Source: Lama guanicoe (taxonomy: Eukaryota). Taken from it: a DNA stretch of 64,000 nt. The stretch lies in NCBI GenBank assembly GCA_013239625.1, contig MU057069.1:1298018-1362017 (forward strand), in the 5' to 3' direction. The position numbers and the translations under genes are program-made. The notes under the pieces are model-generated. The model was not told the origin of the DNA. It saw nothing but the letters and a program-made list of their open reading frames with translations, and did not search any database. Below are positions 10,896 to 19,200 of the stretch, piece after piece. Each line of letters opens with the position of its first letter. Within the stretch, counting starts at the first letter, position 1.

Positions 10896-13800
10896 TCAGA
10901 TTTTGTACAGAAAGCTGGGGACGTAGTCAAACCTGAGCGTGGGCTGAATGGCCCCGGGGTGCTCCTGTGTGTAGTGCAGCCTCAGCAGCTCGGCCAGGTA
11001 CTGGACCACCTTGACGTCTTCGTTCACCAGGCCCAGGCTCAGCTGCAGGAAGCTGGCCTGGCGGCTGGCGGCTGCCGCCTCCGCCTCCCGGCCGCGGGTG
11101 GGCAGATGCAGGTGGTGGCAGAAGGTGTAGAGGAAGGCCTTGGCGCACAGCTGGGCGAGCACGCTCTGCACATGCATGTAGTAGGTGCTGCCCCGCCGGA
11201 TGTGGGTGCGGCGGTCTGCCAGCCGTGGCACCAGGGTGCCTCTGTACAGGGGGCAGCGCAGCGTCTTCCTGTCCAGGTCCAGGACGCTCGTGTAGCGGCT
11301 GTAGCGGCTCAGGGCGTGCAGGGCGCCGGTGCCGGCGGGGGACGTGGCTCTGAAACACACACACATGTCAGGAGGCAGGAGCCCAGGAGGGGAGCCCAGC
11401 CCAGTGGCCACTCTCTGCCCATCACCACATTCGGACGCTCCTCACCCTCCACGACCAAGGGGAGAGCCCGGGAAGACCCACGAGGCCCCAACGACTCGCC
11501 TCCTGCTGGCCTCTGAGGCCCCATCTGTGGCTTCCCGGTGACTCCCTTGCAGCCACGCCAAGCTTTCCACAGGGCCGCAAAATCGAGGGCCTGTCTGCTC
11601 TGCCCGGAACACCCGCCCTCCCTCCTGTACTGGCTCACGCCGATGTCAGACCCGTCCAGCCTCCCTGAGCCCCAAACCCGTCCTTGCTCTTCTGCCTTCC
11701 TGCTCTGGCCTTGGTCCAGCGCCTTACCTTCTGAACCTCATTTGTGAGGTAGAGAATGGTCCCAACCCCGTGGGTCACTGTGGAGGCAGAGGGAGTTGTG
11801 CTCAGGACAGCACAATCACCTCAGCCTGCCACTGACCAGTGGGGCGGCTCAGGACCATACCCCATGCTGCGCCCGGCACGTTGGAGGCAGGCAGGCAGAG
11901 TTCATTCGGCGAGGCAAGGAGGCTGGAGTGTCCAGCCTCAGGAAGCCGCCCCCAACAACACCCTCTAGACCAGGTCTCCTGGAGGATCAGGGATTACCCT
12001 GAGGAGCTCGGCAAATGGCTGCTGACCAGCGATTCACCCACCAGGAGGCCAGCAGACCTCGGGCAGCCGTGATTTAAAAAAATTCTTCCAATTCATTCTG
12101 ACACAGTAGGGCGCAGACCAGGGCTGGCATTAACTGAGGAACTGCAGCCCTCAAGAGACGGAGCGGGACGTGGGCCCAGGACGGGGAATGATTTCCCAAA
12201 AGCGACTCAGTGGGTAGGTGCTGGGCCCGCCTGGAAGCCAGGCCTCCTGGTTCCGGGTCCCTCACACCGATCTGTGAACCTCCCTGAGAGGGACGTCCAT
12301 CGGAAGCCTCCTCTCCACCTGGCCAGGGCCCATCCCCACCACCCGGAACCAATTACCTCTGCAGGCCAATAAGCTTCCACTTCTGAAAATCCGAAATATG
12401 CAGCGGAGAGGAGACCCAGTGCTTCACAGGTTTCGCACAGCAGCCGTAGTTGGGGACAAAGATGGACAATGCTGTCACGAGTTTCCTGACCATGGCCTCT
12501 TCCTCCCCCAACACCACAAGTGTCCTCCCGCTGAGTAGGGAGTAGATGGCCGGGTGGGCAAAGGGGTACTGGCGGATGAACTTTAAGGCGTTCTGGCCGG
12601 CCCTCTTCTTATGCCTCTCGGAAGAGGGGCCGGTGGGGTGAGCGGAGGAGGGCGTCCTGTCCGAGCTGGTGGAGGCGGCGCTGCTCACACAGCTGGTGCT
12701 GTCCGAGTAGTTGTCCAGGCTGGTCTTGCTGCTGTCCCGGCTGGCCAGCAGGTGGCTTGGGTCTAGCTCATAGGCAGGGAAGCCTTCGGAACTGTGGTCT
12801 CGGGAAGAAAGGTTGGAGTTTTCCATGGCGAAGTCCACATGGAAGCCCTGGTCCTTCTGCCTGGAGCGCTGTGGGGGGGTGCTCACGACCCCCTCCTCGT
12901 CAGAGAGTGTGAGGGCTGGAGGGGAGAGGGGCACCTGCGAACCCCTGGTCTCCTTCCCGATGCAGCAGGAGGCATCTGTCTGCAGCGGTGTGTTTTCCAC
13001 GCTGCCCTCCTCGGCCTCCCCTGGCTCTGGCGGGCTGGTGCCTACCTGGAAGTGGATGGCTCCCTCGCCGTCGTCCGCATATGACTCTTCCTCGTTAATG
13101 GCACTTGGGTAGCTGGCCTTAAAATCGTCAGGGATGAGAGCCTCAGAAGGGCAGGTGCTGAGGACTTCAATACTGTCCTCGCTGATGGTTCTGTGGCTGA
13201 CTGCTTTGCTCCGGACCACCTGCGGGCTCAAGGACACCGTCAGGCTGCCCTGGCTGTCAGACTTGAATAGCACAGAGGTGTCCTTCTCGGTGCCCAGAAC
13301 CTCAATGCTTTCACCGCTGCTGATGCTCCCTTTCATGTCCATGTCCTGGCATTTCAAGTTGTCCTGGGGGTCAAAACTGCCCGATTCTGTTCCCTCCACT
13401 TCCTTGTACTCCTCATCACCAAGCTCCTGCTCCATCTTGATCAGCACAGACTCCACGCTGGACCTGTAGGAGCCCACGCTAATTAACACCTGGGGAATTG
13501 GGCATTTCTCCAGAGACCTGGAAGGTGGCCTATCTTGGCTAGGCTCAGCGGGTGCACTCTCCTGTCTCACTACCGCCCTGTCGTCGGCCTCTGCAAAGTC
13601 TTCAAAGAGAAAGTTGGTCACGTGCTGCTGCTTCAGGAGGGCTCTGTCGATCTGGCTGGTCAGGAGGTAGCACAGGTCTCCTCTGAACATGCGCTCAATG
13701 TGGCTGAGCTGAGCCAGCGTCTGGGTGAAATAGTCGGTGTCACAGAGCTCCTCCAGGGTTTTCAACTTTTTGTCAAAACACTTGGTGGACTTCGCTTTGA

Positions 13801-14719
13801 TGAGTTTCGGGGTGTAGGCGGGTCTGCAGGTGTATCGGTCTGTGTCAGCGGACTCTTCAGGGTCAGAGGTAGTGGCTGCCTGGCTGGGACGGTCCTGGGT
13901 GTACTCTGTCTCCCGGGAACACAAATCGGACCCCTTGGACTTCCGACGAGGGTATGAGCGGATCTGCTTCAGCAAGTCCTGGTGTTCAATGATGGACTTC
14001 TCCACGCTGGCCAGCTCGTTGGCTTTCTCGATGGCCTGAGAGGAGTAAAAGCCTTTGTCATTGGCTTTCTTCTGGATCTCCGTTTCCGTGTGCAGCACTG
14101 TCCTGGTGTAATCCAAGTCTTTCAGTTTCTTCTCGAGTTCCCCAGCAAATGCCTTCCTGTTGCCTGTTTTTAAGCACTCTGAAGCTTTGGAAAATTCAGC
14201 CGAAAGCTCCTGGAACTGCTGCATGATTTTGTGCTGGTCGGCCGAGATATAAGCCATACAAAAGGGCCTAACAAAGCCACGGGCCTCCAGGTCGTACAGG
14301 GTGAGGTGGTGCACATAGGCAAAGGCTCCCTCTTTGGAGTCTCCCAACACGACCTTGGAGTCCTCCACGAAGTTCAGCTTGGGGTAGGCAGAACCAGGGG
14401 GATGGCCCACGAAGGATGCCTGGTAATCCACAGACATGATCCGCAAAGAGAAGTAATTGAGATCGAAAGTACCAAAAACTTTGGTGTCATTGGGGATGGT
14501 CAGCAAGGGCTGGGGTCCCACCTGCTCAGAGAACTCGGAAATAAGGATAAAGTCCCGAGAGAACTTGGCCCCGGACAGTTTGGACCACGGATTGGCTCCT
14601 TGGCTGGCGAAGGGAAAGAGTGGCACGGAGTACTCCTCCGGCAGGGCCGGCTCATTGTAAGGCTCCTCCTCGTACTCGTCCTCTTTGGTGAAGGCCACCA
14701 CGTCAGGGGCGCTGATCAT
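10896..14719 (-). CDS. SMCR8: SMCR8, DENN/longin-domain subunit of the C9orf72-SMCR8-WDR41 complex, 938 aa, 2 coding exons
   Basis: Exon 1 CDS 14719-12357 (MISAPDVVAFTKEDEYEEEPY...KWKLIGLQ, donor GTAATT); exon 2 11349-10896 (ATSPAG...FDYVPSFLYKI*). Phase-2 junction gives AGA; total 2817 nt. Confidence 0.98.
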
Positions 14720-14819
14720 ATTTCCAGATATACGGAGAGAGCATTGAGAGGAAGTGGGAAACAATGCGGATGTAGCTAACGCGGGGAAGCCAGGCCTCTG
14801 GAGGAGGAAGCAAACTCCT

Positions 14820-16200
14820 TGCGGTCTTCTTTGCGCCCTCGGGGGTACGAGCTGCCTGTCACACACCCGAGGACTCAAATTCCCGAAGACCCTCAGAACT
14901 GTAGTCCTCCAGGGCCCTCGGAGGCCTCATGAACTCCGCTGATCGGGAAGACTAGGGAGGCCGGCTGCCCTTCTCCTCCTCCTCCGGCGACCGCGGCCGG
15001 CGCAGAGCACCTGCAGCGAGGTCACTGGCGCTCCCCCTAACCCACCGCGACGGCAACAGCCCCAGCCTGAGCGGGTGCCCAACGCGGGGCTACGGGCCGC
15101 CGCACGACCACCCAAGCGTGGCGGCCCCGACGGCCCGAGAACAGAAACCGTCGAGGCTCCTCGGACGCAACAACCAAGAGTAAGCTACCGCGGCGCCGCC
15201 ATCTTGGCATCACATGACTTGCGGAGTCGCACCGCGTGACCCGGAAGCGTCCGCGTCGACTTCCGATCCAGTGTGCGGCGTCTGCCCAGTGCAGAGCTGA
15301 AAGGGAGGGAAGTGCTGCGCGAGTGGCGCGGAGCGCGGGGAGCCCTGGGAGTTGTAGTTCGCGGCTCGCGCCCGCGGAAGCGGGCTGGGAAGGTGGCCGG
15401 AAGCGGGCTGCGCGCGGGGCGGCGGGAGACTCCAGGGCCAGGGGTGCCGCCTCACCATGCGCGGGGCCCGGGGATGATCCTCCCGGTCGCCCGCCGCGCG
15501 CTCCGCTGGCTGCCGCGGCCCGGGGTCCGGACCCTGACCCGCGCCGCCATGGAGGTGGCCTTCCGGGGCGTGCGGAAAATCCTCTGTGTGGCCGAGAAGA
15601 ACGACGCGGCCAAAGGCATCGCCGACCTGCTGTCCGGCGGCCGCATGCGGCGGGTGAGGGGCTCCTTGGCGTCGGGGAGCGTAGCGGACGTTTCGCTCGC
15701 GTGCTTGGAAGCCTTGGGTGCGCCGGGCACGGCGGGCCGCCGAGCTCGTCCGGGCCCCGGAGCCCCGGGGCGGCGCCTTTCTGGGTCCGGGGTGAGCCGG
15801 GGCGTCTGCACCGTCACGTTCTGTAGCTCTGCCGGGTTGGGGCCGCGCGCCAGACTCCTCCAGCCTGCCCTCGGCCTGCGGGATCCTTCCCACGAGGCGC
15901 GCCGTCCCCGCCGCCGCACGCCCGACCCTGCGGCCGGGGCACGGACGCGGCGACGCCGGGAACGCCGGGCTGGGAGGCCGCGTCGGCACAAACGAACCCC
16001 GTGAGACGGGCGGGCTCGGGGTGCGGGGTGTTCTGGACACGGAGGCGCGAAGGAGCGGCTCGGGGAGAAAGGGTTTGTGAAGGAGGGTCACGGAGGGCCC
16101 TCCGAGGCCCTGCCGCCGCTCCTGGGACTCTAATCGCCCAAGGAGAAGGAGCCTCTGCTTCGCTCGCTGCTGTGTTCCTCGGGCCTGATACGTGTCTGGG
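14820..16200. promoter_or_regulatory. CpG island / bidirectional promoter of SMCR8 (-) and TOP3A (+)
   Basis: Dense CpG; start codons are 755 bp apart, head-to-head. Motifs: YY1/TISU CAAGATGGCGGC (-, 15195-15206), E-box TCACATGA (15210-15217), ETS/GABP CCGGAAG (15241, 15397), ZNF143/THAP11-type ACTACAACTCCCAG (-, 15345-15358). Confidence 0.9.
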
Positions 16201-19200
16201 ATACACGAGACTCCGGCGGTATTTGTTGGCTGGATGTTTGGGTTCAGTCTCGAAGTTTCACCAGGCAGTGGAAGTGGCACGTATAAAGGACTTGTGCCTT
16301 GAAACAGTTCGGCATGTTCAAACCTGAGAAGTGGGCGTGCGGGATGGTGGGGGGAGGAGCCAGTGGCAGTAAACACTATTTGAGCGGATTAGGGATTAGT
16401 GTGTTTTGTGTGTTTACCGCCTCGCAGCACACAGATCAGCATTTGGTACCTTCCCGGGGTTGTGTGTCGGTCACTTCTATCTCATACCCGGTTTGATCAC
16501 AATGAAAGGAGACCCCGGAGCCGTTACGCAGTCACTCTCCATTCCCCGGTCCTCCCAGCAGCTGTCCCCGAAGATTTGTCTGTTCTGGGTATTTCATATG
16601 AAAAGATTCGCATCACACGTGGCTTTTTTGTGTCAGGCTTATTTCACTTAGCATTTTTGAAACCCATTCATGCTGTGGTGTGTATCATTACTTCATTCTT
16701 TTTCAGGGCCGAATAATACCCCGTCGGATAGAGAGCATATGTGTTTATCCGTTCTTCACTTGGGTTGGCCCCGCCTTTTGGCTGTTGTGAGTAGAGCTGC
16801 CGTAAACCTTCGTGTACAGGCTTTTCTTCGGATAAGTGTTTTCACTTCTTTTGAATAAGCTCCTCGGAGGGAAGTTGCTGGGCCACAAGTAACTCTATGT
16901 TTAACCTTCTGAGGAACTGCCAAACTGCTTTCCAAAAGTGGCCGAAACATCTTGCATTCTAACCAGTTCCTTTTTCTCCACATTCTGTCAACACTTGTTT
17001 TTTTTTTTTTAATCATCTCCAGCCTAGTGGGTTTGAAGTATCTTGTGGTTTTGACTCTGAGCACCTTTTCATGTGCGTTCTGGCCACTATGTCTCCATCT
17101 TCTTTGCAGAAACGTCCATGTCTTCTGGCCATTTTTGAATTGGATTGTTGGTCTGCTGAGCTGTAAGCGTGCTTTGTGTATTCGGGATATGAGGTCCTTG
17201 CTAGATACGTGATTTGCAGGTACTCTGTTTCATGCTGTGGGTTGTCTGTTTGCTTTCTTGGTAGTGTTCTTTCACGCACAAGAAGTTTTAATTTTGATGA
17301 AGTACAGTTTATCTATTTTTCCTTCTTTTGTTGGTTAGACTTTTACTGTCATGTCTAAGAAGCCATGGCCAGAATGAAGATCAGGAAGATTTGCCCCTTC
17401 TTCTAAGAGTTTTAGCTCTTATATTTTAGTCATTGATCCATTTTGAGTTAGTTTTTCTCGGTAGTGTGAAAAGTCCAACTTCATTCTTTTACACGTGGAT
17501 GTCCAGTTTTTCCCAGCACCGTTTTTTGAAAAGGCTGTCCGTTTCCCGTCGGATGGCCTCGGCATCCTTGTCAAAAATCAGTCGACTATAGATGTTCCTT
17601 TCTGGACTGCCAGTTCCGTCCCGTTCTTCTGTGTGTCTGTCCTCACGCCAGTGCCACGCTGTTGGCTTTGCTGTGGCTTGGCGGTAAGTTTGGAGGCCAG
17701 GTGGTGTGAGTCCTCCAACTTTGTCTGTCTCTTTGAAGGCTTTTTTGACTGCTTGGGGCCCTTGGCAGTTCCGTATGAATTTACCATCGCGATACCAAGT
17801 CCTCCAGTCTGAACACAGCCTGTCTTGCCGCCGATTTAGGTCTCTCAGCAACGAGCTGTAGTTTCCATTGTGCTTTTGGATGCTGTTGTAAACGGAACTG
17901 TTTGCTTAGTTGCCTTTTCAGATTGTTCACTGCTGTCGGTTTCTGTCTTTCTGTGTTATTTTCTTCATTGCTGTTGGATTTTGCATGCCGACCTCGTATC
18001 CTGCAACTTTGCTGGCTTTATTGGCGTGAAGTTTCACTGTGGCTTCTTGAGGATTTCTACCTGTAAAGTCATGCTGACTGCAAGGGGAGAGAGTTCTGCT
18101 TCTCCCTTTCCGATCTGAATGTCTTTTATTTCTTTTTCTTGCCCAGTTGCTCTGGCTGGAAGTAGTGATCCCAGGTAACGACGGTGGAAACGGGCATCCT
18201 TGTTTTGTTCCTGAACTTGGAAGAGGAGCTTCCGCCTTTGACCACTGAGTGTGATGTTCACTGTGGGTTTTTTGCAAATGCCACACTTCACTTTGTCGTG
18301 AAGGGTGCTGCATTTTTACCAAATGCTTTTTCTGCATCAGTTGAGAAGGACTGTAGGTACTAAGTACGGGGTGGAGGGGCAGGGATGGTCATATTTGTGC
18401 TTTATGAAGTCTCCCTGGCAGTGGGGCACTTGGAGAATGGAAGGCTTCTGCACATGGGGGTCAGAGGCCTGAAGTCTAGGGACCTGGGGGCACTTTGCAG
18501 GGGGGCAGAGGGAAAGGAGAGGCAGAGTGATGGAAGCAGTCGGCGTGGAAGGTGGAGGTTCACTGTGCGCTCACACATTCTGGTCCTTCTTCCTGGAATG
18601 ACATTTTGCCTCATCTCTCCTGATGAGCTCTCTTGTCTTTTGAAAGAAAACAGGGGGAGCAACTTAAATGTAACCTATTTGTGACATCTTTCCTCAGCGT
18701 CCTCTGCGACCATTTCCTTCACTCGGTGATGGCGGTCATGGTCGTCACGGGTCCCGGGATCTAGTTGCCTGTCCCCCTCCCGCAGCCTGTCACTCCCCGA
18801 GACAGTGACAGGGCCTGCTCATTTGTTTATCTGTCCCTCACAGAGTTTGCTTTGAATGACAAAATCCCTACCTTGAAGAGACTGGAATTCTGATAGAGGA
18901 GCCAAGACATCCACACACACAGCTCGGAATCAGAGGATGGCCCTGAGCTTTGTAATAGCAAAAACCTGAAATAACAAGCACTAGTGACGGCCGTGGATCC
19001 TAAAATAAACTGTGCTTTCTTTGGTAGATAGTCTGTTGTGGAGAAGACTTTCAAACACATACACAAATATATGTACATTTGAGAGAAATTGACCAGAACA
19101 CTAACAAGAGGTGGAATTTTTCTCTTTTTTCTTTAACTGTAGTACTTAAACAGTGGTAATTATTGCAGAAAATTCAGAGGACGCAGATACGCATCAAGTG

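Follow-up and report, generated by a model that had tools for sequence, protein, structure and literature searches.

The closest described system to the arrangement considered here is that of RNASEH1, in which an upstream open reading frame (uORF) reportedly restricts initiation at the first start codon, Met1, an effect said to have been tested by mutation. In C/EBPalpha and C/EBPbeta, an out-of-frame uORF ends at the first main AUG, and restart at a downstream in-frame AUG produces a shorter isoform. Translational reinitiation also underlies the C. elegans gene tars-1, from which, according to PMC10196762, both the cytoplasmic and the mitochondrial ThrRS are made. For human TOP3A, dual initiation at Met1 and Met26 goes back to Wang, Lyu, Wang 2002, as summarised in PMC12585908; there, the Met1 isoform is mitochondrial and carries the mitochondrial targeting sequence, and the Met26 isoform is nuclear, in agreement with the roles that a preliminary description of our sequence had given to the two codons. 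According to the same source, the products of one mRNA separate daughter mtDNA molecules and dissolve nuclear Holliday junctions. An N-terminally extended form of human TOP3A, initiated at an upstream AUG that adds 32 residues (PMC12718117, Table S2), has its presequence masked and its product diverted from mitochondria. Several starts, short leaders among them, have also been reported for the human gene, with the short-leader forms shifting under hypoxia (PMC12611764).

We analysed a stretch of 64,000 nucleotides from Lama guanicoe, here called the window. The coding part of TOP3A exon 1 occupies positions 15474..15653 of the forward strand, with a GT donor next to it, and the coding exons of the gene extend to 37770. 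Its translation is 100% identical over 60 residues to TOP3A of Vicugna pacos (P0001) and differs from the Camelus proteins at residue 18. The tblastn alignment of P0001 to the window spans 15474 to 37770 and consists of 19 segments; the protein comprises Toprim, topoisomerase and zinc-ribbon domains, the Toprim domain spanning residues 37-181. By a search of its own genome, TOP3A is single-copy, and the same search yielded no retrocopy that could mark the 5' end of the mRNA. Head-to-head with TOP3A, an ORF and domain search located a 788-residue ORF with a folliculin-family domain on the reverse strand (12353..14719), which we take, from sequence and synteny, to be SMCR8. In this head-to-head stretch (12353-15474), the start codons of the two genes are separated by 755 nt and share a CpG island. 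Within intron 1, the stretch 16670-16786 resembles, at 97%, the alternative first coding exon of the predicted alpaca isoform P0143; an isoform of that type would be a TOP3A without the presequence and without the beginning of the Toprim domain.

The uORF comprises six codons (MRGARG*) at 15457..15477 of the forward strand, in frame +1 relative to TOP3A. Its start codon, the uATG at 15457-15459, lies in the context ctcaccATGc, with A at -3 and C at +4. Its stop codon, TGA at 15475-15477, shares the four bases ATGA (15474..15477) with Met1 at 15474, whose own context, ccggggATGa, has G at -3 and A at +4. The nuclear start, Met26, follows at 15549..15551 of the same strand in the strong context gccgccATGg. 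Between the two starts lies a 25-residue presequence (15474..15548, forward strand), a predicted mitochondrial targeting sequence with six arginines and no acidic residue. The uATG is the only forward-strand ATG from 15240 to Met1, and the window sequence contains no further ATG between Met1 and Met26; the next one after Met26 is that of Met58 (15645), whose context is weak. Two features of RNASEH1-type control are present here, namely a pair of in-frame AUGs flanking a mitochondrial presequence, and a short out-of-frame uORF that runs over Met1 and ends before Met26. The preliminary description had given the uORF with its A at -3 and its ATGA overlap, the lack of a +4 G at Met1, the strong context of Met26 and the arginine-rich presequence exactly as we find them. 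Its position for Met26 was likewise right, and its figure of 72 nt for the gap after the uORF counts from the last base of the stop codon, with 71 bases lying between.

We give a probability of roughly 0.5 to the reading that the six-codon uORF constitutively damps the mitochondrial form of TOP3A in the manner of RNASEH1, in addition to conserved leaky scanning. Most transcripts would begin upstream of 15457, and part of the scanning ribosomes would initiate at the uATG, read across Met1 and terminate on it. Those ribosomes would be lost to the mitochondrial form, a fraction of them restarting 71 bases on at Met26, and leaky scanning would apportion those that miss the uATG to Met1 or Met26. 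The expected net effect is less mitochondrial enzyme with the nuclear enzyme largely spared, which would amount to a modest constitutive bias and no switch. In a toy scanning model, whose inputs are assumptions and not measurements, the nuclear:mitochondrial ratio rose 1.0- to 6.8-fold over 36 assumed parameter sets and about 1.75-fold at middle values. The A at -3 of the uATG and the lack of a competing ATG, both from 15240 to Met1 and from Met1 to Met26, likely favour a damper, as do the conserved contexts of the two main starts, the spacing of the uATG from the proximal GGAA codon and the ATG-compatible site in relatives, all given below. Against it stand the C at +4 of the uATG, the frequency of the pattern by chance (6-11% of shuffled leaders) and the short leaders reported for human transcripts. 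Further points against it, also given below, are the excess of ACG over ATG in the island, the dispensability of the ATGA, the ordinary RNA folding and the lack of a TOP3A row in human small-ORF files.

That frequency was obtained from 5000 dinucleotide shuffles of each of three leaders, 64, 124 and 234 nt long, with the sequence from Met1 onwards held fixed. Any uATG occurred in 45-80% of shuffled leaders. A uATG terminating at the ATGA occurred in 11-18%, falling to 6-11% when a purine at -3 was required as well; among shuffles having any uATG, 23-30% terminated on the ATGA. The uORF pattern is real, yet not rarer than chance by the usual thresholds. Overlap with Met1 is unsurprising because the +4 A context of Met1 is conserved and the stop is thereby fixed for uATGs in the +1 frame. 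Since the ATGA stop is set by the context of Met1, the overlap is no separate evidence of design. Of the earlier proposal that ribosomes bypass Met1 and restart at Met26, what holds is that the geometry predicts both events and that RNASEH1 reportedly offers a precedent; the overlap itself adds nothing to it.

To examine the contexts of Met1 and Met26 more widely, 257 TOP3A proteins were collected, one of the searches contributing the 120 listed of its 144 matches, and 239 of the proteins have an anchor motif. They contained 95 distinct Met1-type N-termini, or 93 mammalian ones once two bird rows were removed, and these rows are related, not independent. Residue 2 is isoleucine in 89, asparagine in 2 and leucine in 2, and never valine; read from these residues, the base at +4 of Met1 is A in 91 of the 93 and G in none. 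Residue 36, by contrast, is valine in 58 and isoleucine in 34, showing that the two exchange freely. Met26 occurs in 92 of the 93, preceded by Ala, Asp, Thr or Val and followed by Glu or Ala, and these flanking residues imply a purine at -3 together with G at +4 in every case (92/92). More distant vertebrate-type rows, compared by eye, likewise have a residue 2 that excludes G at +4. In P0112, from Echinops telfairi, leucine replaces Met26 and a methionine occurs two codons further on; the nuclear start seems to have moved in this protein.

A weaker first AUG followed by a strong second AUG is the arrangement of the leaky-scanning type (ELAC2, TRNT1, GARS1), and both elements are conserved here, with Met1 being only moderately weak, as it has G at -3. 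This conserved Kozak asymmetry points to leaky scanning past Met1. It already accounts for both isoforms, and the uORF is therefore not needed for two isoforms to arise. Of the earlier suggestion that the uORF could set the isoform ratio, what survives is an added damper on the mitochondrial start, which we consider likely. Two of the 93 N-termini have Leu2, and the ATGA is therefore dispensable. Residue 2, with Ile or Asn in 91 of 93 rows and never Val, is more conserved than the arginines of the presequence, and its constancy suggests selection on the base itself, keeping G out of +4 and Met1 leaky.

For the uORF to act as a damper, it must lie within the mRNA. A motif scan of the CpG island found promoter-type motifs at 15347..15422 of the forward strand, namely a ZNF143-type site at 15347, ETS-type GGAA elements at 15375 and 15398, and a GC box at 15417. 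The scan found no TATA motif in this stretch, and CpG observed/expected values in the island are 0.9-1.15. Transcription would be expected to start near or just downstream of these motifs. In the reading frame of Met1 the leader has no stop over 78 codons (15240..15473, forward strand), and it contains nine in-frame CTG or GTG codons, of which CTG at 15345 and GTG at 15393 have the strongest contexts, with a purine at -3 and G at +4. Initiation at such codons could give candidate presequence-masking extensions, a further route to nuclear enzyme. Part of the stretch is contained in 18 of the 24 sequencing runs listed, with the RNA runs containing 0.22-0.35 of its words, which gives no evidence on the transcription start.

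The uATG might fall mostly outside the mRNA, or too close to the cap, and so be rarely used. The island is TATA-less, its last GGAA and GC-box motifs lie only 35-60 nt upstream of the uATG, and human TOP3A has short-leader isoforms (PMC12611764), all of which suit such a start. Human transcripts, however, must include 96 nt or more upstream of Met1, because an AUG 32 codons before it gives the extended isoform (PMC12718117). From the proximal GGAA codon to the camelid uATG is 57 nt, the same spacing as for the translated human upstream AUG when that is placed via a bat-type ORF whose anchoring alignment is weak (E 0.04). We consider it unlikely that the uATG is largely missing from the mRNA, and in our judgement most transcripts quite probably hold it in usable form.

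Conservation of the uATG was assessed from in-frame protein extensions, using five database ORFs that extend more than 10 codons upstream of Met1 and the 32-residue human extension. The alignment was made by eye, and a protein frame cannot separate ATG from ACG at the aligned site, the decisive base being silent. Read in the main frame, the camelid uATG site is His-Ala, six codons before Met1. P0155 and P0156, whose ruminant-type lineage was inferred from exon 1, have Asp-Ala at this place and are both colinear with the window leader (E 5e-13 for P0156). The aligned site is His-Ala at -15 in P0040, His-Val at -14 in the bat-type P0041 and, by eye, Asp-Ala at -15 in the human extension (PMC12718117); in all three it is followed by 8-9 codons that are absent from artiodactyl leaders. 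P0243 is uninformative, since it begins at the site's second codon. Thus all four database ORFs that cover the site (4/4), and the human extension, have an ATG-compatible pair (His or Asp, then Ala or Val), these being homologous sequences. In the +1 frame the site reads A, then C or T, then G in four other lineages: ruminant-type, bat-type, P0040 and human. Pairs of this kind are uncommon in the leaders concerned (3/80, 2/62 and 1/55).

The distance from the GGAA codon to Met1 is 74-84 nt in artiodactyls versus 150-162 nt in two other ORFs. Compared with two other mammalian leaders, those of camelid and ruminant type (15436-15473 in the window) are some 70-90 nt shorter and have no counterpart of the segment in which the human in-frame AUG lies. 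A reading in which human lacks the uATG, with Arg at codon -6, was rejected as a misalignment, the artiodactyl leader missing 8-9 codons before Met1. That the leaders of the database ORFs are open in frame was considered as a sign of a conserved extension and rejected, since the search can show open frames only. An ESM Atlas search with the +2 frame returned only signal-peptidase matches, under 0.9, and was set aside as meaningless. For comparison at the DNA level, a metagenome scan for mammalian TOP3A gave 7 loci, none of them mammal-like or reaching past the conserved core, and orthologous DNA was found in 0 of 601 candidates among genome contigs and 0 of 27 among viral contigs.

ACG outnumbers ATG by 27 to 8 over both strands of the CpG island, and the aligned site in the relatives may be ACG, with the camelid T being a CpG change. 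The uATG could then have arisen recently in camelids by a CpG-to-TpG change and have little selected function, in which case leaky scanning would set the isoforms and the uORF would be tolerated noise. We regard this reading as possible, if doubtful. It is in keeping with ACG as the commoner of the two triplets in the island, with the 6-11% of shuffles that reproduce the pattern, with the conserved Kozak asymmetry and with the much shortened artiodactyl leader (74-84 versus 150-162 nt), so that no rigid element is involved. It sits less well with the retention of the A and G of the site in four other lineages, the human one as given in PMC12718117, despite deletions on both sides. A rough estimate, made with assumed rates, places the chance that the ancestral site was ATG at 0.41-0.85, and a uATG with A at -3 should reduce the use of Met1 even if it is young. 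Whether the ancestor already had the ATG is about even, and the uATG may be old. The wider proposition, that the uATG is ancestral in placental mammals including human, as part of a +1-frame uORF ending on or just before TOP3A Met1, we put forward only tentatively; such a uORF may have been kept despite the deletions that shortened the artiodactyl leader.

Information on where the +1 frame ends came from an antisense-frame search, which gave 2 matches among 89 candidates and one cluster mate. These three antisense ORFs, which by eye are of carnivore and squirrel type, terminate two codons beyond Met1 and do not reach the uATG site. Because they end there, their stops fix the sense codon -2 as TTA, CTA or TCA; codon -2 is Leu in the remaining ORFs. 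For the carnivore- and squirrel-type lineages a +1-frame stop 5 nt ahead of Met1 is therefore probable, and the stop on the ATGA looks like an outcome of the artiodactyl deletion. Either position would be too near Met1 for restart there.

This geometry bears on another reading, in which ribosomes stopping on the ATGA restart at the overlapping Met1 by stop-start coupling, leaving the mitochondrial form unreduced. A four-base overlap of stop and start is typical of viral termination-reinitiation, and that is the geometry seen here. In mammals, stop-start coupling requires special upstream RNA elements; general folding of four stretches gave z values of -0.80 to +0.59, near 0 throughout, and found no special RNA structure in any of them. 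With the +1 frame probably stopping 5 nt earlier in the carnivore- and squirrel-type ORFs as well, we hold such coupling to be highly improbable.

The preliminary description had further proposed a stress-tuned switch of TOP3A between its mitochondrial and nuclear forms. The ternary complex is needed for restart once a short uORF has been translated, restart can be limiting over a spacing of 71 nt, and C/EBP isoform ratios are tuned by uORF restart. An ATF4/GCN4-type pair, a permissive followed by an inhibitory uORF, is nonetheless absent, there being one uATG from 15240 to Met1 and none from Met1 to Met26. Met1 lies beneath this single uORF and is out of reach for ribosomes whose restart is delayed; if restart were slower, they would instead miss Met26 and arrive at Met58 (15645), which has a weak context and lies inside the Toprim domain. 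Stress would mainly cut restart at Met26, and from eIF2-alpha phosphorylation we would expect a small loss of nuclear enzyme and no switch. The terms "switch" and "stress-tune" are thus unsupported, and a stress-responsive uORF is very unlikely.

A constitutive damper would offer a single changeable base that shifts the mitochondrial/nuclear share of TOP3A. If it is conserved in human, the leader would be a place to seek variants and uORF-blocking oligonucleotides. If the uATG is ancestral, TOP3A and RNASEH1 would share a uORF throttle on the mitochondrial form, unreported for TOP3A, and human leader variants or start-site shifts, as in hypoxia, could alter mtDNA decatenation with the nuclear enzyme untouched. 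A camelid-only uATG would be a small case of leader turnover, of little wider weight. No description of a TOP3A uORF was found in the literature searched, which lay mainly outside subscription journals and included one small-ORF catalogue. The human frame corresponding to the uORF would have at most 15 codons, and the portion of the human small-ORF catalogue PMC10032668 consulted, six supplementary files from which gene symbols are possibly absent, has no TOP3A row.

Set beside the known systems, the C/EBP genes have isoforms that differ in transactivation, not location, and their regulation has been shown. The tars-1 gene, like TOP3A, gives dual-location forms from one gene, although it is another gene in another phylum. 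Human TOP3A is the same gene as that in the window, with the same starts and presequence, and the part of PMC12585908 considered here names no uORF. The human upstream AUG, like the camelid uATG, sits in the TOP3A leader, and it draws product from mitochondria as the camelid one would; the human AUG, however, is in frame and 32 codons upstream, whereas the camelid uATG is out of frame and the human segment is absent. RNASEH1 resembles the TOP3A locus most closely. In each case one mRNA carries a mitochondrial presequence between two AUGs that share a frame and are separated by about 25 codons, and both enzymes serve mtDNA replication. In RNASEH1, as proposed here, a short uORF would restrict Met1, with restart or leaky scanning leading to the nuclear AUG; its uORF was reportedly shown by mutation, and that of TOP3A is known here from sequence. 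The mechanism is one already described for RNASEH1, and the TOP3A candidate is likely a further case of it.
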